DNA of 64,000 nt, from positions 280,901 to 344,900 of the forward strand of contig CAWDFL010000003.1 of the NCBI GenBank assembly GCA_963801665.1, read 5' to 3'. Shown here piece by piece: positions 2,554 to 45,257 of the stretch. The notes below the pieces were generated by a model. The model searched no databases and was not told the DNA's origin. It was given only the letters and a program-made list of their open reading frames with translations. The DNA is from an uncultured delta proteobacterium. Its GTDB lineage: Bacteria > Desulfobacterota > Binatia > Binatales > Binataceae. The position numbers and the translations under genes are program-made. Positions within the stretch are counted from its first letter, which is position 1. Every line of letters begins with the position of its first letter.

Positions 2554-3460
2554 CTACAGCGTCCCGCGGATGAATTCGTCCAGCACTCGTGTTACCTCTT
2601 CCGGTCGATCCTCCTGCAGAAAGTGTCCCGCGCCGGCGATCGTGACGTGGCGCCGTCCTTTCGCTCCTGGCACGCGTTCCTGAAACGCCTTTTCACCACC
2701 TTTCGTGACTGGATCGGAATCCGAAAAGGCCGTGAGAAATGGCTTCTCGAATTTCTCGAGCGCCTCCCATGCTCTCTTGTTCTCGGCGACCGACCCGTGC
2801 TGGGGAGTGATCGGCACGAGTGCGGGAAATATCCGCGCGCCCGGCCTTATAGGATTCCTCAGGAAAAGGTGCGTTGTATGCGTCGATTTCGGCCGGCGAG
2901 AGTCGGCGCGTCGTGCCCATGTTCACGATTTCTCCGACCGGAAGTTCAGGAACAGTCTGGCTGAAGTTGAGCCACTGCTCGAAAGCGGGCGAAAAGCCCA
3001 GGCCTACGGGCAGGCCCGTATTGGCCGCCACTACGCGCGCGAACCTATCGGGAAACGCGGCTACGAGCCGCAGGCCTATCAACCCGCCCCAATCCTGGCA
3101 GAAGAGCGTGATATTTTTGAGGTCGAGCGCGCTCAGCCAATCGCTCATCCAGCGGACGTGACGTTCGTAGGTGTAGTCGGATCTCTCTGCCGGCTTGTCG
3201 GAGCGGCCGAAGCCGACCAGATCGGGCGCTACCGCGCGATACCCTTTCGCCGCGAGTCCCGCAATTACTTTGCGATAAAGGAACGACCACGACGGCTCAC
3301 CATGCATCAGAAGGACGGGCGAGGCATTCGCGGAGCCTTCGTCCAGGTAGTGAATCCGCAAAGACGTACCGTCAGCATCTTTCACTTCGCGGTAGTGCGG
3401 CGCGAATGGAAAATCCGGCAGGTTGGCAAATTGCTGGTCTGGCGTTCTGAAAACTTTCAC
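2554..3460 (-). pseudogene. haloalkane dehalogenase-like alpha/beta hydrolase, interrupted by +1 frameshift near 2840
   Basis: Two ORFs (2693..3460 and 2554..2817) together reconstitute a ~300-aa DhaA/DhlA-like hydrolase ([18 protein letters not shown] nucleophile elbow; C-terminus [11 protein letters not shown]...[13 protein letters not shown]). The reading frame switches inside the run ccgcgcgcccggcc (one extra G/C). Confidence 0.7.
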
Positions 3461-3493
3461 CAGTGAACCTCCTTGTTCGGCAGGTAATATATT

Positions 3494-3509
3494 GGCATAG
3501 TTAGTGCCA
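3494..3509. promoter_or_regulatory. perfect inverted repeat TGGCA-N7-TGCCA in the dehalogenase/TetR divergent intergenic region (candidate TetR operator or sigma-54 -24/-12 element)
   Basis: ttggcatagttagtgccac. Read on the minus strand it is TGGCAC-N5-ATGCC, close to the sigma-54 consensus TGGCAC-N5-TTGC, and sits ~35 nt upstream of the dehalogenase start with AAGGAGG in between. Confidence 0.35.
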
Positions 3510-3580
3510 CTTTATTTTCCACCGGTCAAGATGCTCGAAATAACGATTGAATGTAATATCTATATTGCGAAAATAGACGG

Positions 3581-4234
3581 ATGACGGGCCAGTCCCCACC
3601 TGCGCACGCGACGCACGACCGGAAACTGATTGCAACGACGATGCATATCGGCACATCCAAACCAGAACAGACCGATGGCCGTCGGCAGCGCAGCGAAGCA
3701 AGCCGCGAGCGTATCGTCCATGCGATGCTGGAGCTGGTTGGTGTGGGCTTCGTTACACCCAGCGCAGAGGCCGTTGCGGCACGCGCGGGTGTGGGGCTAC
3801 GCACAGTTTTCCGTCACTTCGATAACATGGAAAGCCTGTATCAGCAGATCAATGCGGTGATGTCCGCCGAGATTCGCCCCATGGCCGATCGTCCCTTCTC
3901 TGCGCGTGAGTGGAGGGCTCAGGTGGATGAATTGATCGACCGGCGCATCCTCATTTTCGAACGCATCATGCCGTTCAAGATCGCAGCGGACCTCCACCGG
4001 CATCATTCGCCGTTTCTTGCCGAGCGCTGGGCCGAGATGACGCGGGAGCAGCGCGAGTCGGTCAGCCGCGTTCTGCCCAAAAAGCAGCGCTATGATGCTC
4101 CATTCTTCGAGAGCCTTGATCTGGTTTTGAGTTTCGAGACCTGGCGGCGGTTGCGCAAGGATCAGAAGCTCGCTGTGCCTCGAGCCCGGCAGGTGCTCGA
4201 GCGGCTGGTCGGCGCGCTGCTCAAATCCGAGTAG
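3581..4234 (+). CDS. TetR/AcrR family transcriptional regulator
   Basis: N-terminal HTH (RERIVHAMLELVGVGFVTPSAEAVAARAGVGLRTVFRHF) followed by a helical ligand-binding domain. The real start may be the internal Met (MHIGTS...). Confidence 0.8.
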   Translation: MTGQSPPAHATHDRKLIATTMHIGTSKPEQTDGRRQRSEASRERIVHAMLELVGVGFVTPSAEAVAARAGVGLRTVFRHFDNMESLYQQINAVMSAEIRPMADRPFSAREWRAQVDELIDRRILIFERIMPFKIAADLHRHHSPFLAERWAEMTREQRESVSRVLPKKQRYDAPFFESLDLVLSFETWRRLRKDQKLAVPRARQVLERLVGALLKSE

Positions 4235-11375: not shown

Positions 11376-12302
11376 CTAAGGGACGAGAAACTCGCGGATC
11401 GCCGCCGCAATCTCGGCGGCGTGGGTCTCCAGCGCGAAGTGTCCGGTATCGAAGAAGCGAACGGAGGCACCGCTAATATCGCGTTTGAATGCCTCGGCGC
11501 CTGGCGGCAGGAAGAAGGGGTCGTTCTTTCCCCATACCGCCAGTAGTGGCGGCTTGTGCTCTCGGAAATATTTCTGGAAGGCCGGGTAAAGCGCGACGTT
11601 GGTCTTGTAGTCGCCGAATAAGTCGAGCTGCGCCTCGTCCGCGCCTGGCCGGGCCAGATAGAAATTATCGAGCGAGTATCCGTCTGGCGAAACCGCCGTC
11701 GCATCAGAGACCCCGTGTGTGTATTGCCAGACGGTCGTCTCGGGCTTGAGGAAAGCGCGGAGTGCGTCGCGGTTGGCTTGCGACGGGTTCTCCCAATAGG
11801 CCCGGATCGGATTCCAGCCATCGCTCAAACCTTCCTCGTAGGCGTTGCCGTTCTGTGAGACGATCGCGGATATACGTTCCGGATGCTTTAGGGCAATCCT
11901 CAAGCCCACCGGCGCACCGTAGTCGAAGATGTAGATCGCGAACCGTTTCAACCCGATCACCTCGGTAAAGCGATCGATTACATCGGCGAGATTATCGAAG
12001 CTGTATTTAAACTTATCGCGGGGCGGCAGATCCGATTGACCGAAGCCCGGCAGGTCAGGCGCTACGAGGTGAAAGCGGTCGGCGAGAAGTGGAATCAAAT
12101 CGCGGAACATATGCGACAACGTCGGGAAGCCATGAAGCAGCAAAACAACCGGCGCGTTCAACTCACCGGCCTCGCGATAAAAAATCTTCATCCCGCTCGA
12201 GTTCACAGTGCGATAGCGTACGATGGGTGAAATCACTTGATCAGTATTCATGATGCCTTCCTTCGTGAGTATTCGGCGATTTACCCGCGTTCGCCTTCTC
12301 AT
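11376..12302 (-). CDS. alpha/beta hydrolase (epoxide hydrolase/haloalkane dehalogenase-like)
   Basis: LLLHGFPTLSHMFRDLIPLLADRFHLVAPDLPGFGQSD; the likely start is the internal Met (MNTDQ..., ~12252). Confidence 0.8.
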   Translation of the reverse strand: MRRRTRVNRRILTKEGIMNTDQVISPIVRYRTVNSSGMKIFYREAGELNAPVVLLLHGFPTLSHMFRDLIPLLADRFHLVAPDLPGFGQSDLPPRDKFKYSFDNLADVIDRFTEVIGLKRFAIYIFDYGAPVGLRIALKHPERISAIVSQNGNAYEEGLSDGWNPIRAYWENPSQANRDALRAFLKPETTVWQYTHGVSDATAVSPDGYSLDNFYLARPGADEAQLDLFGDYKTNVALYPAFQKYFREHKPPLLAVWGKNDPFFLPPGAEAFKRDISGASVRFFDTGHFALETHAAEIAAAIREFLVP

Positions 12303-12310
12303 GAAATTAA

Positions 12311-12877
12311 CTAACGCTCCGGGATCTGCGGAGCCTCAGAGTCAGCGCGCTGAACAAACCGCGCACCAGCGCGGATCGAGGACTCATCGCGGCCGATCAC
12401 CTTGTCCACGAATCGTCTCAGAAAAAAATCGATACTCAGCCATCCCGCGCCTGAAAAGAACAGCCAGACAAACGACAGCGCATACAGCGGTTCATCGAGT
12501 TCGGCAAAGTCATCGAGGCCCCCGACATGCTTCAGTTTCACAGTCAGGATCGCGACTATCATATTGATGATCATGGGAATCGAAACGAAGCGCATTCCCA
12601 ACCCGAGAATCGTCAGCGCACCACCGAGGAATTCCGTGTACGCCGACAGCGCGGCGTTGAAACCGGGGTAAGGAATTCCCCACTGCGCGAACCTCATCGT
12701 GAATGCGTCGAGGTTGTGAATCTTTCCCCACCCGGTCTCCATGAAGAAGTAGCCGACAAACAGACGCATCAGGAGCGCGGGAATCCACCACGCAGCCGAC
12801 AGCCGGTCGAAGAGTTCCGCCGCCGCAATTATGAGCTTTTTCCGGTACACGCTGCTAAGGCCCTCGGGTCCGCGCAA
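12311..12877 (-). CDS. DoxX family membrane protein (BufD-like position)
   Basis: 188 aa, 4 TM helices, DoxX-type sequence (LLMRLFVGYFFMETGWGKI...). Divergent from the Cys-rich precursor gene. Confidence 0.8.
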   Translation of the reverse strand: MRGPEGLSSVYRKKLIIAAAELFDRLSAAWWIPALLMRLFVGYFFMETGWGKIHNLDAFTMRFAQWGIPYPGFNAALSAYTEFLGGALTILGLGMRFVSIPMIINMIVAILTVKLKHVGGLDDFAELDEPLYALSFVWLFFSGAGWLSIDFFLRRFVDKVIGRDESSIRAGARFVQRADSEAPQIPER

Positions 12878-13006
12878 CTTAGATGCGCCAGGACTGACGA
12901 GGTTACAGACTCGCGTTCGCTCGCCAGAGTTCGAATGTCAGGACTGAAACCTTTCTGTCGCTGCGGAATCAAAGTCCCATATCCCAACTCCCTAGGAGGA
13001 GAAAAA

Positions 13007-13270
13007 ATGAACGCGAAGAATCTGCTGATCGCCAGTGCAGTGGCGATGCTGTTTGTAACCGGCGCCGTGAATGCCCGCGCCGATCAGAGCGCGGGCACCG
13101 ATCAGGTGAAGTGCGTCGGTGGGAACAGCTGCAAGGGACAGTCGGCCTGCAAATCCGCGCACAATGACTGCAAGGGCAAGAACGCCTGCAAAGGACAAGG
13201 CTTCGCCCAAACGACCGCGCAGGATTGCAAAGACAAGGGCGGCACCGTCGCATCGCTTGACAGCAAGTAG
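13007..13270 (+). CDS. bufA: Sec-signal-peptide, 6-Cys RiPP precursor (bufferin BUF_6/12Cys-like, BufA)
   Basis: AGGAGG RBS 8 nt upstream; MNAKNLLIASAVAMLFVTGAVNARA signal peptide (AxA site), then KCVGGNSCKGQSACKSAHNDCKGKNACKGQGF...DCKDKGG with repeated C-K-G-x-x-x-C spacing. The supplied 247-aa ORF (12527..) is an artefactual upstream extension. Confidence 0.7.
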   Translation: MNAKNLLIASAVAMLFVTGAVNARADQSAGTDQVKCVGGNSCKGQSACKSAHNDCKGKNACKGQGFAQTTAQDCKDKGGTVASLDSK

Positions 13271-13318
13271 ATCCAAAAAGGCGGACCTCGGCTTCGCAGC
13301 CGGGGTCCGGCCAAATAC

Positions 13319-14161
13319 ATGAGCTTCTTACCCCATCTAGGTCACGGCGTCGGTCTTCGGACCGTTCACTATCCGCAGGTCCTGGACAGGACCGCGCGCT
13401 CGGATTGGTTCGAAGTAATTTCGGAAAACTTCATGATTGCAGGCGGACGGCCTCTGCAGATACTGGAGAAAGCTCGGGAGCTCGCGCCAATCGTTCTTCA
13501 TGGCGTCTCGCTCAATATCGGAGGAACCGATCCTCTCAGGCCAGACTATCTCGCCGATCTCGAGTCGTTGATTCGACGGTTCGATCCAGCTTGGGTTTCC
13601 GATCATCTTTGTTGGGGAGCTAGCGGCGGCCGATTTGCCCACGATCTTTTGCCGCTTCCCTACACTGAAGAAGCGGTGAGGCACGTTGCTTGCCGAATCC
13701 GCCGGGTTCAGGACCGCCTCGGCCGACGCATCCTTGTAGAGAATGTTTCCAGCTACCTGACCTACACCATCTCGTCGATGCCCGAATGGGTCTTTCTTAC
13801 CGCGGTCGCTGAGGAAGCTGACTGCGGAATTCTGTTGGACGTCAACAATATCTACGTTAGCGCGAGCAATCACGGATTCTCGCCCTTCGAGTATCTCTCG
13901 GGAATTCCTGGGGAGCGGGTTGGGCAGATCCACCTGGCTGGTCACAGCACTTCGGGAGACTTGCTGATCGATACGCACGATCATCCTGTTCCGACGCCGG
14001 TGTGGCGGCTTTATCGCGAGGCGGTGCGAAGGTTCGGCGGTGTATCGACTCTCGTGGAATGGGACGATCAGATCCCTTCTTTCGGCGAACTCCTGGCCGA
14101 AGCGAATCGCGCGCGCAAAATTGAGAATGAGGTACTCGGTGCAAGCTGCGTCTCTCCATGA
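13319..14161 (+). CDS. bufB: DUF692 multinuclear non-heme iron oxidase (MbnB/BufB-like MNIO)
   Basis: 280 aa; LGHGVGLRTVHYPQVL...WFEVISENFM...SDHLCW...LVENVSSY, typical of the DUF692/MbnB TIM-barrel family. Confidence 0.85.
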   Translation: MSFLPHLGHGVGLRTVHYPQVLDRTARSDWFEVISENFMIAGGRPLQILEKARELAPIVLHGVSLNIGGTDPLRPDYLADLESLIRRFDPAWVSDHLCWGASGGRFAHDLLPLPYTEEAVRHVACRIRRVQDRLGRRILVENVSSYLTYTISSMPEWVFLTAVAEEADCGILLDVNNIYVSASNHGFSPFEYLSGIPGERVGQIHLAGHSTSGDLLIDTHDHPVPTPVWRLYREAVRRFGGVSTLVEWDDQIPSFGELLAEANRARKIENEVLGASCVSP

Positions 14162-14214
14162 AGTACAGCGTCTGTTCTGGGAGTCTGTAGCGAGACGGCC
14201 CGGCCGCGACTCGA

Positions 14215-14922
14215 TTGCACCCGCCTTCGTCAGGATGGTTCGCGGCGCTAATGACGGCGATCGAAAGAATCGAATCCGCGTTTATTCAGACGCTTACTAC
14301 TTGCGTCTACGGCGACGTCCTCCGCGAAGACTTCCATCGAGTAGCCGCTCTGCTCGGCGCCGGCCAATTCGACCAAGTTGTGGCAAACTATCTGGAGGAG
14401 TTTCCCTCGGAACAGCCATCGGTCCGTCATTTGGGACGCGCTCTCGCCGAATTTCTGCGGCGCCGAGAAGACCTGCCAAAGTGCCTTGCCGATCTCGCGG
14501 AACTCGAATGGGCCCGCGTCGAAGTTTTTGACGCAACCGACGCCTCATGCGCGACGATCGAGGACCTGGTCTCCGTTCCCCCAGATTACTGGCCGGCTTT
14601 GCGCTTTCGGGCGATACCCGCAATGCAAACTCTGCGCACTCAATACCCCGCGCATCAACTTTGGTCCGGCGCCGAGTCCCTGGAACTGTCAGCGGCCGAG
14701 ACTTCGCTCCGCGTGTGGCGCAAAAATGGCGAGGTCCTTCATGCGTCGATGGACGAGCGAGAGTCGGCGGCGCTGAGTAGGATGGTCTCAGGCGAACCGT
14801 TCGCCGCAATCTGTGAAACTTTCACAGATCTGCCCGAGATGGATGCGGCGCAAGAAACGGCTGCGCTTCTCGTGCGATGGATCGAAGACGGGATCATCAG
14901 GCGAATTCGCGCCGCCGATTAG
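14215..14922 (+). CDS. bufC: DUF2063 partner protein (MbnC/BufC-like)
   Basis: 235 aa immediately downstream of the DUF692 gene. DUF2063-like N-terminal region (FQTLTTCVYGDVLRED...LAELEWARVEVFDA). TTG start at 14215 or ATG at ~14251. Confidence 0.75.
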   Translation: MHPPSSGWFAALMTAIERIESAFIQTLTTCVYGDVLREDFHRVAALLGAGQFDQVVANYLEEFPSEQPSVRHLGRALAEFLRRREDLPKCLADLAELEWARVEVFDATDASCATIEDLVSVPPDYWPALRFRAIPAMQTLRTQYPAHQLWSGAESLELSAAETSLRVWRKNGEVLHASMDERESAALSRMVSGEPFAAICETFTDLPEMDAAQETAALLVRWIEDGIIRRIRAAD

Positions 14923-14923
14923 A

Positions 14924-15193
14924 CTACGATGCCTTCGGCCGCTTTGGTCCATTGTTCAGAATCCTGAGGACAAGGGAATTCGGAATTACGGTTTCGCCGG
15001 AATGGCTCGAGTCTTGCGCTATTCGCCTTAACGCGCTGACGGTCAGCTCATATCCCTTCAGGTACTCCGAGCATCGCCTGCATTGGACGACGTGCTGCGA
15101 AAACGATCTGCGGTCAGTGTCGCTCAATTCCCCGTCTCTCAAGAGACGAATCAAGCCGACGAATTTCCGGCAGGTCATCGGGCTACGCCGCAC
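14924..15193 (-). CDS. putative zf-HC2 (ZAS-type) anti-sigma factor
   Basis: 89 aa: MTCRKFVGLIRLLRDGELSDTDRRSFSQHVVQCRRCSEYL, the canonical DGEL...H-x3-C-x2-C anti-sigma zinc motif. Overlaps the NDH-2 3' end by ~11 nt and converges on bufC. Confidence 0.45.
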   Translation of the reverse strand: MRRSPMTCRKFVGLIRLLRDGELSDTDRRSFSQHVVQCRRCSEYLKGYELTVSALRRIAQDSSHSGETVIPNSLVLRILNNGPKRPKAS

Positions 15194-16559
15194 GGCTTTC
15201 CTTATCGTCGGAGCCCTTCGAGGCCGTCGTGCCGAGAGGATGTCTGGCAGTCACGTAGGCGAAGTCTTTCGCAAAGCACAGATCCAGCGTCCAATCGAGC
15301 GCAACGCGCATCTTTTTCTCGAGCCGGGGGAGTTTGAACAGGTAGATTGTGCGCCACAGCCACCAGGCAGAGAACCCCGAGAAGTTGAGGCCAAAGACAT
15401 TCGCCACGCCCGTGCGCCGGCCGATTGCCGCGCGCCGGCCCAACGTCGAGAACCTAAATGGCCTCCTCTTGCCTCCAACGATATCCGCGGCGACGTTGCG
15501 CGCGGCGCATCGTGCTTCGCGAATCGCGTGCTGAGCAGTTGGCGGATGGAATCCTCCCGTCTTGAGGTCAGGAATCGAAGCGCAGTCGCCCAGCGCCCAC
15601 ACGCCGGGAAATTCTTTGTTTTCCAGGTATTCATTGACGAGGATGCGTCCACCTATTTTTGGTACTGGCAGTGCGGCAACCAGAGGATTCGGTGCATTGC
15701 CGGCCGCCCAAATTAGCGTGGTGGCGGGAATCGTCCGGCCGTCTGAGAGCTCGACGATGCCGTCACGCACTGACGTGACACGCGAGCGAGTGATTATCTC
15801 GACACCGCGCGCAGCTAGCTTGCGTTGCGCGTAGGCTCCGAGCTTGTTGCCCAACTCCGGCAAGATGAACTCGTCAGACGATACAAGAATCGTGCGGACA
15901 AATTCCGGCGTCAGGTTGGGATAAAAGCGAATCGCCTGGCGGAGGAAGTCATTGATTCCGCCCAGCGTTTCGACTCCCGCGAAACCGGCGCCCACTACCA
16001 CAAACGTGAGCAGCGGCTGCCGTTTGCCGGCCGCGCACTCCGAGTTCGCTTCTTCGAGATGCGTGATCAGTCTGTTTCTCAATTCGATGGCGTCGTCGAG
16101 CGTTTTGATAGTCAGCGCTATCTCCTGCACCCCCGGCAGGCCGAAGAAATTCGTTCTAGAACCGAGCGCGACTATCAGATGGTCGTAGGCGAGTTCGTGG
16201 ACGTGGCGATCGAAGCCATGGGTGACGGCGACGCATCGCCGTTCCAGGTTTATCGTTTCTATGTCTCCGGTGAAGGTCTTCACTCTGCGGAGCAGCTTGC
16301 GAAGAGGATTGACGATGGTGTTCATTTCGAGATCGCTCGCCGCTACCTCGTGCAGCATCGGCGTGAACAAAAAGTAGTTGTCGCGCGTTACCAGTGTGAT
16401 GCTTACATCGGCCCGGCGGTGCAGAGTTTTTTCCAATTCCATAGCGGCGTAGATGCCGCCGAACCCGCCGCCAAGTATCAGGACTCTGTGGGCGCAATCC
16501 GCGCTTGCGTTGGCCTCGGGAATACCGCCGCATCCGTCTTTATTTTCGGTTTGATTCAA
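15183..16559 (-). CDS. ndh: type II NADH dehydrogenase (NDH-2)
   Basis: Two GxGxxG dinucleotide folds (VLILGGGFGGIYAA; FVVVGAGFAGVE), C-terminal membrane-anchoring amphipathic region; 458 aa. Confidence 0.85.
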   Translation of the reverse strand: MNQTENKDGCGGIPEANASADCAHRVLILGGGFGGIYAAMELEKTLHRRADVSITLVTRDNYFLFTPMLHEVAASDLEMNTIVNPLRKLLRRVKTFTGDIETINLERRCVAVTHGFDRHVHELAYDHLIVALGSRTNFFGLPGVQEIALTIKTLDDAIELRNRLITHLEEANSECAAGKRQPLLTFVVVGAGFAGVETLGGINDFLRQAIRFYPNLTPEFVRTILVSSDEFILPELGNKLGAYAQRKLAARGVEIITRSRVTSVRDGIVELSDGRTIPATTLIWAAGNAPNPLVAALPVPKIGGRILVNEYLENKEFPGVWALGDCASIPDLKTGGFHPPTAQHAIREARCAARNVAADIVGGKRRPFRFSTLGRRAAIGRRTGVANVFGLNFSGFSAWWLWRTIYLFKLPRLEKKMRVALDWTLDLCFAKDFAYVTARHPLGTTASKGSDDKESRAA

Positions 16560-16628
16560 TTGATTCGTTCACGCCGGAGCCGTTGAAAGTGCCTGATTAT
16601 TCGATAGCTTAGATGCGTCTCAGGCCGA

Positions 16629-18689
16629 GTGGTTTCATCATTTCCGTTGGCGTACAGACGGTTTGTCATTAAAATAAGGGCGCTTACGAAGCCCCTGACT
16701 GTCGCGGCGGAGTTCTCTTTGGCGGGTGAGAAGCAATTCGCGGAGCAGACCCCTTTCGACGACGCCGCGCTGCGAGAGATCGTCGAGGGCGTCGAATCGG
16801 AGACGGGCGATCGTTTCTTCTACTCGCTCGTCAAACATCTCGCATCCGCCCTCGGCTGCGAGTACGCGTTTGTCTCCGAACTCCTGGCAGATGGTTTGAG
16901 GTTTCGGACGCGCGCGGTATGGGGACGCGGAAGTTTCATGGAAAACTTCGAAATGTCCCTCAATGGCACTCCATGCGAAGCAGTTCTGAACGGCAAGTCC
17001 TCTCATCATCCCGAACGGATCTGCCAGCTCTTTCCCTCTGACAGCGCTCTTAAGCAGTGGGGCGTCGAGAGCTATTGCGGCGTTCCGCTGCTTGATTCGG
17101 TTGGGATCGTGGTCGGCCACCTGGCAATCCTGTCGGAGCGGCCGATGTGGGAGGGACCTCGCGGCCTCGCGATCATGCGAGTTTTTGCTACTCGCGCGCG
17201 CGCCGAATTAGAGCGGCTGCGCACCGAGGATGCACTGCGCCGCGCGAACGAGGCGTTGCTACGCAGCGAAGAGCGCTTTCGTGACCTGTTCGACGAGGCT
17301 CCTATAGCCTACGTGCATGAAGACCTTGACTCCCGGTTCATCGAGGCGAACCGCACAGCGATGAGGATCCTCGGTCTCAAGCCCGAGGAGGTTGCCGGGA
17401 TGACCGGAAGGTCTTTGGTGCCTGACACGCCCGCCGCGCAGCGCGCCCTGAGCGAGTGGCTCGACTCAATGACGCGAGGCTCCTCCGCCACTAGCGGCAG
17501 GGTCCTTGAGCTGCGCCGCAAGGACGACGACAAGCCCGTTTGGATCCAGTGCTGGTCGAGGCCGGCTCCCGACGGCAGCTACACGCGCACTATGTTTATC
17601 GATGTAACGGACCGCGTGCTCATGGAGCGGGAGAAGGCGCGCCTGGAAGCTCAAAACACCTACCTGATCGAAGAGATCAAGGAAACGCACAACTTTGAGG
17701 AGATAGTCGGGCGGAGCCGGGCTCTGGCCGAGGTGATCGAAAAGGTAAAGCTTGTCGCGAGCACCGATTCGTCGGTGCTGATTCTGGGAGAAACCGGCAC
17801 CGGAAAGGAGCTGATAGCGCGCGCAATACACTCGAACAGCGAGCGCAGGAATCGGCCTCTGGTCAAGGTGAACTGCGCCGCTCTTCCTTTTGGTCTTATC
17901 GAGAGCGAATTGTTTGGTCATGAGAAGGGAGCCTTCACCGGCGCGACCGATCGCCGCATCGGCCGGTTTGAGCTCGCGCACGGAGGGACGATCTTCCTGG
18001 ACGAGATCGGCGATATGCCGGCCGATGTGCAGGCGAAGCTGCTCCGAGTTCTCCAAGAGCATGAATTCGAGCGGGTCGGTGGCTCGAACCTGATCAAGGT
18101 TGACGTGCGCGTGATCGCGGCGACCAATCGCGATCTTTTTCGATCGGTTTCCGAGGGAACTTTCCGGCAGGATCTCTACTACCGCCTCAACGTCTTCCCG
18201 GTTCAAATGCCGCCGCTACGTGAACGCCGCGAAGATATTCCACCGCTCGTGCACTATTTCGTCCGCCGCTTCAGCTTGAAAATCGGGCGCAAGATAACCC
18301 GCATCCAGCGCGAAACGATGGAAAGGCTGGCCAGCTATGCCTGGCCGGGAAATGTGCGGGAGCTCGAAAACGTGATCGAGCGCGCTGTAATCCTGTCGCG
18401 AGGGAACGAACTCGAAGTCGCTCCCGGCGTCTTGCCGGAGATCGCGCCTGTCGCGCACGCGCAAACAGCCCCACCACGGCGCGCGCCAGAGGAAAAGGTT
18501 CCGGCGCTTCCTCGGCCGCAAAGTATAGATCAGGTGGAACGCAATCACATTCTCGAGGTTCTGATGCGAACCAACTGGCGAATCGAAGGAACTGAAGGCG
18601 CAGCGGCATTGCTGAACCTCAATCCCAGCACGCTTCGCAGCCGTATGAAAAAGCTCGGAGTCCAGCGAAACACTCAAGCGACTTCGTAG
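16629..18689 (+). CDS. sigma-54-dependent transcriptional activator (GAF-PAS-AAA+-HTH)
   Basis: Sensory N-terminal domains, AAA+ sigma-54 interaction domain ([36 protein letters not shown] motif, [10 protein letters not shown]), C-terminal Fis-type HTH. Confidence 0.85.
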
Positions 18690-18730
18690 ATCCGCGAGAT
18701 ATCGCGGGCGAGCGTCGCGGCTCGTGGTCT

Positions 18731-19720
18731 TTGGACGGCCTGAATTACCGAAATCGTTGCGATATTGATCGTGGCCTGCGCCTTGCTGTGAACGAGGCCA
18801 TGATCAGAATCACCGCCGTTACCCACCCGGACTGCAAGACTCGAGTCATTGTCGAGGGCCGAATAACTAAGGTCTCATCCGTCGAATTGGCCGGCGTATG
18901 CCAACAGCATCTCACGCGGGGAGGTAACCTGGAGCTTGATCTGTCGGAAGTGACCTTCGCGGACCGCGATGGCGTAGCCTTGGTGCACGATTTGATCAGC
19001 CAGGGCTGCGTACTTGCGGAGTGCTCGGAGCTGGTGCGCACGCTGGTCGACGATCACTCATCGCAGTCGCCGAAGTCTGATCGCGCAGGCGACGAAGCGC
19101 GGTTGCTTGCGAAACTACGCGCCGGCGAAGAGGGCGCATTCGAACTGGTGGTTCAGCGATACGGCGGGCGCATGCTCGCAACCGCGCGGAGATTTCTGAA
19201 CAATGAGTGCGACGCGCAGGATGCAGTTCAGGAGGCGTTTGCTTCCGCGCTTCGCGCGCTCGACAAATTCAACGGTGACGCGCTTTTGTCGACCTGGCTT
19301 CACCGAATCGTCGTAAACGCTGCTCTGGTGCAATTGCGGTCCAAAAGGCGCAGATGCGAGCAGCCGATAGAAACGTTGCTGCCGCGCTTTGGCCGAGACG
19401 GCGAATGGATCGACGAGCAAGTAACATGGACCAACGCGGCCGAAACCGTTCTCGAAAGTCGCGATTCGCGCGAGATGTTGCGGCGCTGCATCGAGCGACT
19501 TCCCGAGAAGTACCGTTCCGTCCTCGTGCTACGCGACATCGAGGAGCTGGATACTGACGAGGCTGCCCGGTCGCTCTCGGTCACTGTGAACACCGTCAAA
19601 GTGCGGCTCCATCGAGCTCGCCAGTCACTCAAGACTCTCATCGAGCGAGAGCGTGTGCTTCGGTCGCACAATTCGAACCACACGGCGGCGAGAAGTGGAA
19701 TCAAATCGCGGAACATGTGA
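18731..19720 (+). CDS. ECF (sigma-70 family) sigma factor with N-terminal STAS-like extension
   Basis: Residues ~25-110 resemble a STAS/anti-sigma-antagonist fold (IRITAV...ELDLSEVTFADRDGVALVHDL). Residues ~125-315 are sigma regions 2 and 4 (DAQDAVQEAFASALRALDKF...TWLHRIVVNAALVQLR; LPEKYRSVLVLRDIEELDTDEAARSLSVTVNTVKVRLHRAR). The last ~12 codons read antisense through a hydrolase gene fragment. Confidence 0.65.
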   Translation: MDGLNYRNRCDIDRGLRLAVNEAMIRITAVTHPDCKTRVIVEGRITKVSSVELAGVCQQHLTRGGNLELDLSEVTFADRDGVALVHDLISQGCVLAECSELVRTLVDDHSSQSPKSDRAGDEARLLAKLRAGEEGAFELVVQRYGGRMLATARRFLNNECDAQDAVQEAFASALRALDKFNGDALLSTWLHRIVVNAALVQLRSKRRRCEQPIETLLPRFGRDGEWIDEQVTWTNAAETVLESRDSREMLRRCIERLPEKYRSVLVLRDIEELDTDEAARSLSVTVNTVKVRLHRARQSLKTLIERERVLRSHNSNHTAARSGIKSRNM

Positions 19721-19836
19721 CCGGCGGTCGGAAACCCATGCAATAAGAGCAAGTTTGGGGCGTCTGGCCGGCCGGCTTCGCGATAGGAAATCTTGAGGCC
19801 ACCAATATCGGCGGCGCGGTAGTATATCCCCGGCAT
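19688..19836 (-). pseudogene. truncated 5' fragment of an alpha/beta hydrolase gene paralogous to 11376..12302
   Basis: Reverse-strand MPGIYYRAADIGGLKISYREAGRPDAPNLLLLHGFPTAGHMFRDLIPLL, then homology ends abruptly at ~19688. The 30-mer ggcgagaagtggaatcaaatcgcggaacat is identical at 12086-12115 and 19688-19717. Confidence 0.55.
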
Positions 19837-20290
19837 GACAAAACCTCTGGGTAGAGATCGCGTTAACCTAACTGAGGACATCAATCGGGCTACTCAAGCC
19901 CGCGCGCTTAGGGAATGGTTTCGCGCCTTTGTTCTCGCCCACAAGGGCCTTTCGTTAGGACCAGAGTCGCTACACGAACTTGGGCCTCTGAACAGGATAC
20001 TCGAGCGCGACGACGCGTACGGGGCGATAGCAGTCAGGTCAGTCGATGCGCCCGATCGGTTGGCGACGTTCTGGACTTGAATGGCGCACCCTGCGCCGCT
20101 GGCAAACGCCGGACTCTCTCATCCTGCCGATTGCGCACGCAATAGCGAGCCTGCTTACTTCCGAGGATCTTTCTCACGTGAAGGCATGCGAAAGGTCTCC
20201 GTGCACACTCTTCTTCCTGGATAGGACTCGCAGTCAAGCTCGCTTCGCCGCTTCGTCGCCAGATCACGACGTTCGCAGATACCGGACCAC
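19835..20290 (+). pseudogene. degenerate ABATE/zf-CGNR-like gene (frameshifted, zinc ribbon eroded)
   Basis: Frame 1 (19835..20080) and frame 2 (20046..) together give ...LILPIAHAIASLLTSEDLSHVKACERSPCTLFFLDRTRSQ..., resembling the C-terminus of CGNR zinc-finger proteins but lacking the final RRWCS...CGNR motif. Confidence 0.3.
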
Positions 20291-20295
20291 GAGGC

Positions 20296-20925
20296 GTGTT
20301 ACGTCATCCACAAACCGGCCTGCTTTCTCATGCGGTTCAAATTTTTGGCGTCTGTTTTGTGATCCTCGCGGTTCTTATGTTCGCCAGCAGCCGCTTCGGT
20401 AAATTTCGCGCGCGCGACCGACTGCTCGAACGCCTGAAGCTCCGCGGAGACGAAACCGTGGTCGATGTCGGGTGTGGTCACGGGCTCCTGCTCATCGCCG
20501 CCGCCAAGATGCTGCCGCAAGGCCGCGCGGTCGGCATCGATCTCTGGTCGATGGATCAATCCGACAATTCGCGTGAAGCCACGCTCAGGAATGCCGCGCT
20601 CGAGGGAGTTGCCCAGCGAGTCAGCGTTTATGACGGAGACATGCGCAAAATGCCCTTCGCCGACCGCAGTTTCGACGCCACCGTCGCCCACTTCGCCATT
20701 CACAACGTTCGCCGCCGCGAAGGGCGCCGTGAAGCCATCCGTGAAATCGTGCGCACCCTCAATCAGGGCGGCCAGGTCGCGATTTCCGACATATTCAGCA
20801 TCGACCTCTACGCCGACGAGTTGCGCAAGTCGGACATGATCGATGTGGAAATATCCGGCCTCAGTTTCTGGACGTTTCCTCCCGCCCGCACCGTGACCGC
20901 AAGGAAGCATTCGCAATCGGTCTGA
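20296..20925 (+). CDS. class I SAM-dependent methyltransferase with N-terminal TM helix
   Basis: VVDVGCGHGLLLIAAA motif I; 209 aa. Confidence 0.75.
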   Translation: MLRHPQTGLLSHAVQIFGVCFVILAVLMFASSRFGKFRARDRLLERLKLRGDETVVDVGCGHGLLLIAAAKMLPQGRAVGIDLWSMDQSDNSREATLRNAALEGVAQRVSVYDGDMRKMPFADRSFDATVAHFAIHNVRRREGRREAIREIVRTLNQGGQVAISDIFSIDLYADELRKSDMIDVEISGLSFWTFPPARTVTARKHSQSV

Positions 20926-21607: not shown

Positions 21608-22515
21608 TCATCCGGCGAATCGGGGCTCGGGCTTTCCTTTTACGCCGAGTCCCTTGATTGCGAATAGCGCGCCACCATCGGGGCCCGGATCCATGTTAAG
21701 CGTCTTCGTTCCGATCGATGTCGTGTAAAGCACGTCGAGGTTTTCACCGCCGAACATTGCGCTGGTGATGATCGGGACTGGAACCTCAACCGTGCGCGCG
21801 ATAGTGCTGTCCGGATTGAAGCACACGAACTTGCCGCCGCCGGCGATAGCCGACCAGAGATGGCCTTCCGCGTCGACGGTTGCACCGTCGGGCACGCCAC
21901 CCATCCCCTTCACTTTCACGAACTCGCGTTTGTTTGAGACCGTCCCGGTGGCGAGATCATAGTCGTAGGCGTAGATGGTTCGCGTCACGCTGTCCGATAG
22001 ATAGAAAGTTCGATTGTCGGGCTGAAGCACGGCCCGTTGGTTTTCAGAGCGCCATCGATGCTGAAAACGGATCCGGCCGGTTCGGCGAATTTCGTGTCCA
22101 GTGTGCCGGCGACGAATCTTCCGTGCGCATCGGTCTTGCCGTCATTGAAGGTGGTTCCCGGCTTGGCGACGATTCCGTTCGGCACCGGGGTCGTGTTGCC
22201 TGAATCAAAATCGAGGAAATAGAAGCCGTCGCTCAGCGCGCAGATGGCACCGCCTTTTTCACGGATCGCGAAGGAGCCGATCTGCTTCGGCATCGTCCAG
22301 CTCTTTACGTTGTTCGTTTTCGGATCGAGCCGGTAAATCGCCGGCGCATTGCCGTCGATCCAGTAGAGCGCCTGTTCAGCAACGTCCCATACCGGACCTT
22401 CGCCGAGCTTATTCTTTACGCCCGGGATTTTCTCGATCGAGATTGCCATGATTGAACCTCTAGAAGCTGACGCGGTCCGCGCCGATTCTAGAATTTGCCG
22501 TACGAACCTGTCCAA
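21608..22515 (-). pseudogene. SMP-30/gluconolactonase/LRE-family protein, interrupted by -1 frameshift near 22018
   Basis: N-terminal half (ORF 21985..22515: GEGPVWD...LYWIDGNAPAIYRLDP) and C-terminal half (ORF 21608..22030: DNRTFYLSDSVTRTIYAYDYD...PDGATVDAEGHLWSA) are in different frames. The junction ...LKTNGP / (LAF)SPDNRTFYL sits at plus-strand cgattgtcgg (one G short). Confidence 0.7.
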
Positions 22516-43094: not shown

Positions 43095-45257
43095 ATGCCA
43101 GTCAGGGCGCCGCCTATCGGCGCCCGCCGGCGAGAGCTTTCCGGAGCGCAAATGAACGAGCAAGTCACCCGCCAGATTCTCTGGAACATCCCGATCCCAT
43201 TCATCGTCCTGATGTACTCGCTGCTCGTGGTGCTGATCGCCGCGTACGTATGGGCGGGGCTCGGATGGTACCGCAGGATTCGGCTCGGCGTCGCCGACAA
43301 TCGCCTCGACCAGATTCCGCGCCGCGTGTTTCTTTCGCTGCGCGACGCGCTCGGGCAGGGCTACGTCACCCGCGAGTCCTGGGGATGGATGCATTACTCG
43401 TTCTACGTCGGCTTCGTCGGGCTGCTGATCGGCACGACGATCGTCGCGATCAACAGCGACGTGCGCGACCTGGTCGAGCTCTTCGGGCTCCAGCTCTATT
43501 TCTATTACGGCGATTTCTACCTGTTCTTCAAAGCCGCGATGGACACCTTTTTCCTGATCCTGATCGCGGGAATTTTGGCCGAAGGCGCGCGCCGCCGCTT
43601 GCGCAAGCCGTCGGTGCTGAATCAGCCTCCCGCCGATAAGGTCAACGACAACTTGGAGAATCAGCTCGGCTACTGGTTTCCGATGACGATGCTGGTGCTG
43701 GTCGCGTTGACCGGCCTGATGCTCGAGGGTGCGCGCATCAACGCGACTCATCCGAAGTTCACCGAATGGGCTTACATCGGCCGCACCATCGGCCATATCG
43801 AGGGCGCGCTCGGCGCTGGCGCAACCTATCATCGCTACCTGTGGCTGACGCATCTGATTCTCGTTTATGTGCTCCTCGCCTGTTTCGCGTTCACCAAGCT
43901 GCGCCACCTAGTGTTCGGGCCGGTGAACCTGTTTTTCCGCAATCTCGGGCCGCGCGGCCGCCTCGCTCCGATCAAGGATTTCGAGACCGCCGAGACCTTC
44001 GGCGTCTCGCAGGTCGAGCAATACACCTGGAAGCAGTTGCTCGATATGTCGTCGTGCCTCGAATGCGGGCGATGCACTATCAACTGCCCGACGGTCAACA
44101 CCGGCAAGACGCTGAATCCGAAATTTCTCGTGATCGAACAGCGCGAGCATCTGCTGCAGAAGGCTCCGTTCCTGCTCGCCGCCGAAGCCGCGAAAAACAG
44201 CGGCGACGGCGCGGAGCCTCCGGTCTGGGACGGTCCCGACATGATCACGCAAGTCGCGACCGAAGCCGCGGTCTGGGGATGCACGACCTGCGGATGGTGC
44301 GAGGAGGGATGCCCGGTCGGTATCGAGCATATCCAGCGCATCGTTGACATGCGCCGCTACGAAGTCCTGATGGAAAGCAAATTTCCGCAGGAAGCGACGA
44401 GCGCGTTCAAGGGAATCGAGAACCAGGGCAATCCATGGGGACTCGCGGCCGAGAAGCGCGCCGAATGGGCCGCGGGCCTGGGCATCCCGGAGATGGCGGA
44501 GGTCGAGGATCCCGCCGATCTCGACGTGCTCTACTGGGTCGGATGCGCCGGTTCGTTCGATGAGCGCAACCAGAAAGTGTCGCGCGCGTTCTCGGCGCTG
44601 ATGCGGCAGGCGGGAGTCAAATTCGGAATCCTGGGAAAAGAGGAAACCTGCACCGGAGATCCCGCGCGCAGATTGGGCAATGAGTATTTGTACGCTACCG
44701 TCGCGGCGCAGAATGTCGAGACGCTAAATCGCTACAAGCCGCGGCGAATAGTCACTCAGTGCCCGCACTGCTTTCACAACCTGAAGAATGAGTATCCAGA
44801 CTTTGGCGGCAATTATACAGTTCTGCACGAAGCCGAATTTCTGGCCGAGCTGGTTCGTGCGGGACGCCTCAAACCCAAGGAGATTTTGAAAGCACGCGTC
44901 ACCTATCACGATCCCTGTTACATGGCGCGGCACAACCGCGAATGGGACGGCGCGCGCGAGATTCTCCGCGCGGTTCCCGGTACGGAAGTAACCGACGTCG
45001 ATCAATCGAAGAACCGGACATTCTGCTGCGGCGCGGGCGGCGGATGCATGTGGAAAGAAGAGCATGAGGGAACCCGCATCAATCAGAAGCGCCTCGATCA
45101 GCTAAGCGAAGCCAAGCCCGAGTGCGTCGCCGTAGGATGCCCTTTCTGCATGACGATGATCGAGGACGCGGTAAAATCGCGCTCGCTGGAAGACACGATG
45201 CGCGTGCGCGATCTGTCCGAAATCATGGCCGAAGCCACCGGCGCGCTGGAGAAGTAA
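43095..45257 (+). CDS. membrane-anchored Fe-S oxidoreductase (HdrD/GlpC/DsrK-like: TM domain + 2x[4Fe-4S] + two CCG domains)
   Basis: ~5 TM helices N-terminal; CLECGRCTINCP and CTTCGWCEEGCP ferredoxin motifs; C-terminal Cys-rich CCG motifs (YHDPCYMARH, FCCGAGGG). The start is probably MNEQV (~43152). Confidence 0.8.
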   Translation: MPVRAPPIGARRRELSGAQMNEQVTRQILWNIPIPFIVLMYSLLVVLIAAYVWAGLGWYRRIRLGVADNRLDQIPRRVFLSLRDALGQGYVTRESWGWMHYSFYVGFVGLLIGTTIVAINSDVRDLVELFGLQLYFYYGDFYLFFKAAMDTFFLILIAGILAEGARRRLRKPSVLNQPPADKVNDNLENQLGYWFPMTMLVLVALTGLMLEGARINATHPKFTEWAYIGRTIGHIEGALGAGATYHRYLWLTHLILVYVLLACFAFTKLRHLVFGPVNLFFRNLGPRGRLAPIKDFETAETFGVSQVEQYTWKQLLDMSSCLECGRCTINCPTVNTGKTLNPKFLVIEQREHLLQKAPFLLAAEAAKNSGDGAEPPVWDGPDMITQVATEAAVWGCTTCGWCEEGCPVGIEHIQRIVDMRRYEVLMESKFPQEATSAFKGIENQGNPWGLAAEKRAEWAAGLGIPEMAEVEDPADLDVLYWVGCAGSFDERNQKVSRAFSALMRQAGVKFGILGKEETCTGDPARRLGNEYLYATVAAQNVETLNRYKPRRIVTQCPHCFHNLKNEYPDFGGNYTVLHEAEFLAELVRAGRLKPKEILKARVTYHDPCYMARHNREWDGAREILRAVPGTEVTDVDQSKNRTFCCGAGGGCMWKEEHEGTRINQKRLDQLSEAKPECVAVGCPFCMTMIEDAVKSRSLEDTMRVRDLSEIMAEATGALEK

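Follow-up and report, generated by a model that had tools for sequence, protein, structure and literature searches.

We report that a gene on the + strand (18800..19720, stop codon included) of a 64,000-nt stretch of DNA from an uncultured Binataceae soil bacterium (Binatia; assembly GCA_963801665.1, contig CAWDFL010000003.1, positions 280,901 to 344,900; the whole stretch is hereafter called the window) encodes a 306-aa protein in which an N-terminal STAS domain is joined by a flexible linker to a complete extracytoplasmic function (ECF) sigma factor. In relatives the same type of STAS domain is encoded by a separate gene that overlaps the ECF gene behind it, and comparison of these arrangements indicates that the window gene is the fused form of a STAS-to-ECF gene pair that is conserved and coupled in translation. 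Sequence motifs and gene order further point to a regulatory circuit, a model that we regard as probable but well short of assured: a sigma-54 enhancer-binding protein (EBP) would switch on the STAS-ECF gene, whose product would direct transcription of a bufferin operon and of an operon for a type-II NADH dehydrogenase (NDH-2, ndh2) and a zinc-associated anti-sigma (ZAS) protein, with the STAS domain modulating the binding between sigma and anti-sigma in cis.

A STAS domain and an ECF sigma factor in one polypeptide

The first-pass annotation of this DNA had described a single open reading frame (ORF) of 329 aa that opens at a TTG codon (18731-19720, + strand). The open frame is indeed uninterrupted, but it begins too early. 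An identical database protein (P0001) is 306 aa long, the start methionine with the sequence MIRIT is common to 112 of 120 homologues, and a conserved -24/-12 promoter (see below) falls within the 23-codon TTG extension (18731 to 18800). For these reasons translation almost certainly begins with the ATG at 18800; if the TTG at 18731 is taken instead, the ORF runs too far upstream, across the gene's own promoter. The fusion itself is shared by more than 100 homologues, mostly from Binatia, which are 64-88% identical, ~300 aa long and covered over ~96% of their length, and this rules out an assembly or frameshift artefact. In databases they go under generic names ('RNA polymerase sigma-70 factor, ECF subfamily').

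On the window protein alone, the Pfam model STAS_2 (PF13466) scores below its gathering cut-off (E=0.002, 18.7 bits versus 29.2); precomputed PF13466 matches are found on many homologues and PF01740 matches on a few. A profile built from 31 of the N-terminal domains had four matches only among PDB sequences, all of them anti-sigma antagonists: TM1442 (E=1.3e-4), then 4hyl (deposited as 'Stage II sporulation protein', with an entry title that names an anti-sigma-factor antagonist), RsbV and RsfB. The segment that had originally been singled out as STAS-like, LDLSEVTFADRDG, aligns with the TM1442 motif LDLSSVSYMDSAG. AlphaFold2 (AF2) modelling of the isolated domain gave a predicted local distance difference test score (pLDDT) of 82 and a predicted template-modelling score (pTM) of 0.71 (pLDDT ~85 for residues 1-84 within the full-length model), with the topology beta-beta-alpha-beta-alpha-beta-alpha, and the top 24 Foldseek matches of this model in the PDB were all STAS proteins, the best being RsbV (query-normalised TM-score, TMq, 0.78; root-mean-square deviation, rmsd, 2.6 A) and others RsfB, SpoIIAA, MlaB and the SLC26 STAS domain. 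As judged by the family profile, the AF2 and Foldseek comparisons and residue statistics, residues 1-84 (18800..19051, + strand) are a genuine STAS domain, an assignment that is weak for the single sequence and solid at the family level.

The position that corresponds to the phosphorylatable serine of SpoIIAA (Ser58) is Arg in the window protein and A, R, G, E, S, D, T or P across 150 representatives. Because this position is variable, the domain, to judge from its sequence, is not a phospho-switch of the SpoIIAA/RsbV type. Neither a HATPase_c/RsbW/SpoIIAB-type kinase nor a PP2C phosphatase is present among the window genes from 12.3 to 25 kb (~6 kb around the gene), and a HATPase_c kinase and a PP2C phosphatase are likewise absent from the genes of the related loci L087 and L088. 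Two cysteines are widely kept among the 150 STAS relatives, Cys34 (helix 1) in 122 and Cys75 (strand 4/helix 3 junction) in 125; in the closest family both are invariant together with Cys70, which is invariant there only.

The C-terminal part of the protein carries sigma region 2 (Sigma70_r2, 9e-17; 19151..19354, + strand, residues 141-208 of the 329-aa frame or 118-185 of the 306-aa protein) and sigma region 4 (Sigma70_r4_2, 3e-18; 19469..19630, + strand) in Pfam comparisons. With regions 2 and 4 only and with the superfamily model sigma70-ECF above its cut-off (NCBIfam TIGR02937, 98.3 bits versus 42.9), it belongs to the ECF (group 4) sigma factors; no equivalog-level model reaches its cut-off for the sigma part (best PRK11922, 162.7 versus 204). 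Region 2 superimposes on region 2 of E. coli sigmaE with an rmsd of 1.3-1.4 A in Foldseek, and the sigma domain matches the structures of sigmaE, AlgU and SigW, with 29-32% sequence identity. An RpoE-like ECF sigma factor occupies residues ~100-290 in complete form, and the proposal of a cis fusion to such a factor is borne out. The linker between the two parts (residues ~85-100; 19052..19099, + strand) is modelled with low confidence (pLDDT <50 at residues 85-94 in the full-length AF2 model), and its length and sequence vary among fused homologues.

Fused and unfused forms of the STAS-ECF pair

In a genome scan that covered one genome per species (loci labelled L001 and so on), the full-length fused gene was detected in metagenome-assembled genomes (MAGs) of Binatia / Candidatus Binatus (L001 and L002, 72-74% identity; L005, 45%) and in L003 (49% identity), a locus whose bin label is dubious. 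The window DNA is ~81% identical to L001 and L002 over 12.4-19.7 kb. For the sigma domain taken by itself, relatives with ~55% identity occur in Acidobacteriota and Planctomycetota. In seven loci without the fusion (L007, L008, L013, L016, L020, L040 and L047), mostly Acidobacteriota MAGs (the bin labels of L008 and L016 are implausible), the ECF gene is immediately preceded by a separate STAS gene of 83-105 aa, and the two overlap by ~4-44 nt. With L081 and L085, the loci of two stand-alone representatives from the profile search described next, added to these seven, the overlap is present in 9 of the 9 unfused loci examined. The separate STAS proteins are of the same type as the fused domain (MLRI[ST]...EG...C...LDLSGV.F.D..G...CS.F).

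A profile search of 1.84 billion representative proteins yielded 1675 STAS relatives at E<=1e-3. Among the best 150 of these, 128 are at most 130 aa long, consistent with stand-alone STAS proteins (and a few truncated fragments), and 9 are longer, with the STAS domain followed by ECF sigma sequence, and are spread over several distinct clusters at 50% identity. In a neighbour-joining tree built from 86 columns of the STAS domain, fused forms stand in at least two places; the tree is too poorly resolved for counting fusion events. Since relatives carry the same STAS domain as a separate, overlapping upstream gene, the window gene is a true domain fusion of a trans-acting pair. The occurrence of fused genes side by side with coupled separate genes is a classic sign of two parts that would work together physically.

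A conserved sigma-54-type promoter in front of the STAS-ECF gene

The gene upstream of STAS-ECF (16629..18689, + strand) encodes a GAF-PAS-sigma54 AAA+-HTH_8 activator according to Pfam, in agreement with its earlier description as a sigma-54 EBP gene; its start is uncertain, as orthologues are called ~30-100 codons shorter, and it ends 110 nt upstream of the STAS-ECF start. Upstream of the STAS and ECF genes, whether fused or separate, an EBP orthologue recurs in at least 12 loci (L001, L002, L003, L005, L007, L008, L013, L020, L040, L047, L087 and L088). In the gap between the EBP gene and the ATG there is a sigma-54 type -24/-12 promoter, TGGCCTGCGCCTTGCT (18772..18787, + strand; consensus TGGCAC-N5-TTGCW), with the correct spacing. 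The motif is found at the same offset in L001, L002, L003 (TGGCATCCCCCTTGCT), L087 and L088 and as a variant in L005. It also precedes separate STAS genes, at the same offset in L008 and L081 (where it is a perfect TGGCAC-N5-TTGC, TGGCACATAGCTTGCC) and further upstream in L013, L016, L020, L040 and L085. Conservation of this TGGC-N7-TTGCT element in at least 7 fused and at least 6 unfused loci supports the sigma-54 to ECF cascade that the first-pass annotation had considered possible, and the -24 GG/-12 GC promoter, its spacing and the adjacent EBP gene together mark STAS-ECF as a predicted sigma-54-dependent gene. A second sigma-54-like match in the window (43159-43174, - strand) was rejected as a chance match; it lies inside a + strand gene and has no plausible downstream gene.

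In L008, L081 and the Binatia loci the gap between TTGC and the ATG is only 13 nt, and a leaderless or near-leaderless transcript is therefore predicted, probably with a leader of 0-3 nt. From the end of the -12 element to the start codon there are 12-13 nt in the window, L001, L002, L003, L005, L008, L081, L087 and L088. A conserved GAGG stands 2 nt before the ATG, too close for a normal Shine-Dalgarno sequence. About 70 bp upstream of the -24 element, the inverted repeat CCGCGA-gata-TCGCGG with a third TCGCGG half-site (18692..18720) is a candidate upstream activating sequence. It is kept in L001, L002, L005, L087 and L088 despite diverged flanks and is plausibly a site for the activator, judging from this conservation; it lies just behind the EBP stop codon and could instead form a short hairpin.

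The activator gene itself varies among loci. In two Thermoanaerobaculia MAGs (L013, 4851-7562; L020, 4940-7576) the EBP has the architecture zf-HC2-GAF-PAS-GAF-AAA+-HTH_8 and lies upstream of separate STAS and ECF genes; this junction of an anti-sigma-type domain with the EBP is a second fusion that ties the four components (EBP, STAS, ECF and anti-sigma) together. The activators upstream of STAS-ECF in L047 (1979-7477) and L040 (1974-7547) are giant proteins of ~1830-1860 aa, and a Pfam scan of the L047 protein detected Ser/Thr kinase, AAA_16 (STAND-like), GAF, sigma-54 AAA+ and HTH_8 domains.

A candidate anti-sigma gene and ECF-type promoter motifs in the conserved block

The STAS-ECF gene closes a conserved block in the order DoxX (-), bufA-bufB-bufC (+), ZAS-ndh2 (-), EBP and STAS-ECF (+). 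The same order is found in L001 and L088, and two further loci match the block over the genes present: L002, on a contig that begins inside bufB, and L087, in which ZAS is uncalled. An 89-aa ORF (14924..15193, - strand) encodes a soluble zf-HC2 (ZAS-type) anti-sigma homologue (PF13490, 26 bits versus a cut-off of 22.2) with an HxxxCxxC motif (H34-x3-C38-x2-C41), and it shares 30-38% identity with the small zf-HC2 genes that immediately follow unfused sigma relatives. This relationship makes it the best candidate for the cognate anti-sigma factor, and by sequence it is the probable one; it lies 3.6 kb upstream of STAS-ECF and had gone unnoticed in the first-pass annotation. ZAS homologues accompany STAS in 11 of the 14 loci that contain it. 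The adjacent NDH-2 gene (15183..16559, - strand; Pfam Pyr_redox_2 and NDH2_C) could be co-transcribed with ZAS; the ndh2-ZAS pair recurs in L001, L002 and L088, and in L087 only NDH-2 is called.

Two ECF-type promoter motifs are associated with the block. TGAAACC-N15-CATCTAA lies upstream of ndh2-ZAS (16609..16637, - strand) and is kept in L001, L002, L087 and L088; TGAAACC-N15-AATCAAA lies upstream of bufA (12945..12973, + strand) and is kept in L001, L005, L087 and L088. A motif of this type also precedes the ZAS genes of L004 and L005. The Binataceae contig L004 also holds (2780-3966) a sigma relative that is 61% identical to residues 97-284 and has no STAS part by tblastn; a divergently placed zf-HC2 gene there is preceded by a TGAAACC...ATCAAA motif, and this sigma may be a STAS-less paralogue that uses the same type of ECF promoter.

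The genes behind the second motif form a bufferin-like operon of the ribosomally synthesized and post-translationally modified peptide (RiPP) class, bufABC (13007..14922, + strand), the putative ECF regulon. It comprises bufA (13007-13270), a DUF2282-like Cys-rich precursor of 87 aa with a signal-peptide-like N-terminus and repeated Cys that lies inside a longer ORF; bufB (MbnB/DUF692; 13319-14161; MbnB_TglH_ChrH, 4.5e-107); and bufC (DUF2063 by Pfam; 14215-14922), all on the + strand. Divergent from bufA is an ORF for a DoxX-family membrane protein (bufD-like; 12311..12877, - strand) with tblastn homologues in related loci, and its orthologues in L087 and L088 carry Pfam DoxX. The region 12311-14922 thus holds the full set of a Buf1-type bufferin cluster, with a precursor, a multinuclear non-heme iron-dependent oxidase (MNIO), its DUF2063 partner and DoxX. 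Bufferins are copper-chelating peptides, and the Caulobacter operons are under the ECF factor SigF and its anti-sigma NrsF (PMC11626156; PMC12452194). A bufferin cluster is linked to the regulatory genes in Binatia and also in the Thermoanaerobaculia loci L013 and L020. In L081 (5001-6317), a separate STAS gene and an overlapping ECF gene are followed by a 91-aa bufA-like Cys-rich precursor, with EBP and DoxX genes nearby.

A model for the STAS-ECF protein and its alternatives

In other lineages the module is made up of separate genes for a sigma-54 activator (EBP), a STAS protein, an ECF factor and a small zf-HC2 anti-sigma (ZAS); here, one gene encodes a polypeptide that combines a non-phosphorylatable, cysteine-bearing STAS domain, a flexible linker of ~15 residues and an RpoE-like ECF factor. 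The GAF-PAS EBP would sense a signal and, with sigma-54, fire the -24/-12 promoter before the ATG. The STAS-ECF protein would then guide RNA polymerase to the TGAAACC-type promoters of bufABC and ndh2-ZAS, and the induced ZAS protein would bind the sigma domain as negative feedback. Finally, the tethered STAS domain would tune the equilibrium between sigma and anti-sigma in cis, either competing for ZAS or shielding sigma, possibly via the two conserved thiols. The first three of these predicted steps are supported by conserved sequence motifs and gene order. The fourth, and with it the self-regulated status of the ECF factor that the first-pass annotation had envisaged, we infer from the domain fusion and from the known behaviour of STAS antagonists, and a tethered antagonist is the most economical reading because the nearest structural relatives of the domain bind anti-sigmas and because an anti-sigma has been retained.

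Several observations weigh against this model. The anti-sigmas bound by classical STAS antagonists are of the HATPase type and not ZAS proteins. The full-length AF2 model (pTM 0.34; region 4 pLDDT 45-73) has no confident docking of STAS on sigma. ZAS was not found within the fetched flanks of L003 and L081. Both conserved STAS cysteines are missing in L005, so a thiol switch cannot be universal. As to the promoters, the sigma-54 pattern occurs twice in the 64 kb against 1.25 expected, so that the motif alone is not rare and the case for this promoter is its conservation. The pattern TGAAACC-N15/16-ATC(T/A/C)AA likewise occurs twice in the 64-kb window against 0.02 expected, a statistic that is circular, as the motif was read from the same sites; the real evidence for the ECF motif is therefore its conservation across loci. 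Moreover, a search in front of 53 unfused sigma relatives turned up no ECF-type motif, which therefore cannot be taken as a feature of the sigma clade at large.

The main rival reading, which we hold to be unlikely, makes the STAS domain an autoinhibitor in cis. As a built-in anti-sigma it would sit on region 2 and/or region 4 and block binding to core RNA polymerase or to the promoter until freed by thiol oxidation, a metal or a ligand, with ZAS as a second layer. Regulatory extensions of ECF factors have been described as replacing missing anti-sigma factors (PMC8999054), which would fit such a role. So would the STAS-ECF pairs that have no ZAS gene in the fetched flank (L081 and L003) and the conservation of two cysteines across the STAS subfamily. 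The AF2 model counts against this reading as well, for it shows no confident interdomain packing; without such contact neither the antagonist nor the autoinhibitor is favoured structurally. ZAS is present in most of the STAS-containing loci and lies behind an ECF-type motif, as expected of the main anti-sigma. Moreover, direct binding to a sigma factor is not known to us for any STAS domain, a further point against autoinhibition.

A quite improbable alternative is that one frame gives two proteins, the sigma factor being made from an internal start, so that STAS-ECF and free ECF coexist or the STAS part is effectively separate. Two isoforms from alternative starts are known for ECF12 sigmas such as SigR (PMC7826278). 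The sole in-frame start-type codon of the linker is a TTG at Leu102 (~nt 19103) that the window shares with L001 and L002 at this position, but the codon is CTG in L003 and CTC in L005, it has no Shine-Dalgarno-like sequence before it, and the codon alignment of fused homologues contains no conserved internal start in the linker. An internal promoter is equally unsupported, because a scan of 18500-20300 detected no sigma-70-like promoter, and none of the more than 100 homologues has a stop or frameshift between the domains. Taken together, these observations give internal initiation no support.

Slightly less probable still is a pro-sigma whose N-terminal domain is cut off by proteolysis, as in BldN, so that the fusion delays or gates activation. 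The flexible, exposed linker would suit this idea. However, in relatives the folded STAS domain exists as an independent, translationally coupled protein, which points to a binding function rather than to a disposable pro-peptide, and no protease gene is conserved in the cluster (window, L087 and L088). Least probable of all, to our mind, is a STAS domain unrelated to sigma/anti-sigma binding, for example one that binds the EBP as sigma-54 feedback or senses a small molecule or nucleotide: an anti-sigma domain fused to the EBP in L013 and L020 does speak for physical cross-talk between the EBP and ECF branches, and nucleotide binding is reported for STAS domains of other proteins (title of PMC5613929), but in the loci seen STAS adjoins or is fused to the ECF gene and never the EBP gene, and its closest structural relatives are anti-sigma antagonists.

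If the tethered-antagonist model is taken one step further, the loci may represent an undescribed four-part module whose members have been fused in different pairs (STAS-ECF in Binatia; ZAS-EBP in L013 and L020), in which the fused STAS domain would act in an intramolecular anti-anti-sigma partner switch with a zinc/thiol anti-sigma instead of a kinase. This extension is tentative, and we would sooner expect it to need revision than to hold in full; if true, it would couple a sigma-54 transcriptional input and a redox/copper post-translational input to bufferin production.

Relation to described systems

Few signalling devices of bacteria are as abundant as ECF sigma factors, and the regulatory parts added to them have been catalogued as a guide to mechanism. 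The STAS part of the window protein has the fold of SpoIIAA, RsbV and RsfB (Foldseek TMq 0.70-0.78, rmsd 2.4-3.4 A) and shares with them the LDLS-V-F-D--G motif and a gene position beside a sigma factor gene. It differs from them in being shorter, without beta5/alpha4, in its variable Ser58 position, in its covalent fusion and in its partner, an ECF and not a group-3 sigma factor; nor does an RsbW/SpoIIAB-type kinase or PP2C phosphatase gene lie within ~6 kb of the window gene. Redox control without phosphorylation is reportedly found in M. tuberculosis RsfA. Where two proteins that relatives encode separately are naturally fused, the genome offers strong evidence of joint action, and on this evidence a kinase-independent STAS partner switch acting on an ECF/ZAS pair is predicted.

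Described ECF factors with extensions (PMC7826278, PMC8999054) resemble the window protein in joining an ECF core to a covalent regulatory part. N-terminal extensions have been described as rare and short (BldN, SigC, SigR'; PMC7826278), and the reviewed regulatory extensions are mostly C-terminal or fused anti-sigma domains (PMC8999054); the window extension, in contrast, is N-terminal and a folded STAS domain, and a separate anti-sigma homologue is retained. The term STAS is absent from the text of the ECF classification paper PMC7826278 and from that of PMC8999054, and full-text literature searches for a STAS-ECF fusion or operon returned nothing relevant.

The sigma factor and its putative partner also recall the RpoE/AlgU/SigW-like ECF factors with class I (zf-HC2/ZAS) anti-sigmas and autoregulated operons, given the 29-32% identity of the sigma domain and a small zf-HC2 anti-sigma gene behind an ECF-type motif. 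The -35 GAAAC and -10 TCAAA-like elements of the window motif resemble the sigmaE-type consensus. Unlike in those systems, the window sigma gene is preceded by a sigma-54 promoter and not by an ECF motif, and the anti-sigma gene has moved to the divergent ndh2 operon and encodes a soluble protein with no transmembrane segment. Sigma-54 cascades that lead to an alternative sigma factor are exemplified by Borrelia RpoN-RpoS and by the sigma-54-dependent rpoE promoters of E. coli. The window shares with these an enhancer-dependent sigma-54 promoter that would drive a second sigma gene; it differs from them in its adjacent EBP gene, its STAS-ECF target and a promoter geometry that predicts a leaderless mRNA.

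For ECF control of bufferin operons, the Caulobacter vibrioides SigF-NrsF pair, which acts on buf1 and buf2, offers a precedent (PMC11626156): as in the window, the ECF gene lies beside a DUF2282-MNIO-DUF2063-DoxX bufferin cluster, of which it is the inferred driver (PMC11626156; PMC12452194). The window anti-sigma is a zf-HC2 protein and not the membrane protein NrsF, and the window adds STAS and sigma-54/EBP layers, neither of which figures in the text of PMC11626156 or PMC12452194. Thus, the building blocks (STAS, ECF, ZAS, sigma-54/EBP and bufferin) are known, whereas no earlier description seems to exist of their combination or of the two alternative fusions. For the bufferin metallophore clusters of little-studied phyla from soil (Binatia, Acidobacteriota), the arrangement provides a circuit that is testable and compact enough, with its defined sigma-54 promoter, candidate ECF promoters and few proteins, that it could be rebuilt in E. 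coli.

Flanking region

Synteny between the window and L001 and L002 breaks off at ~19680, at the 3' end of the STAS-ECF gene, a pattern suggestive of a rearrangement breakpoint immediately behind this gene. Beyond this point, the ORF 19735-19884 (- strand) resembles over its first ~65 codons the N-terminus of the alpha/beta hydrolase encoded at 11376-12302 (51% identity over 35 aa); because its frame runs on antisense into the sigma gene, we regard it as a truncated remnant. Further downstream, two overlapping ORFs (21608-22030 and 21985-22515, - strand) are seemingly the two halves of an SMP-30/gluconolactonase-like protein, and the region 21608-22515 may hold a frameshift or a pseudogene.

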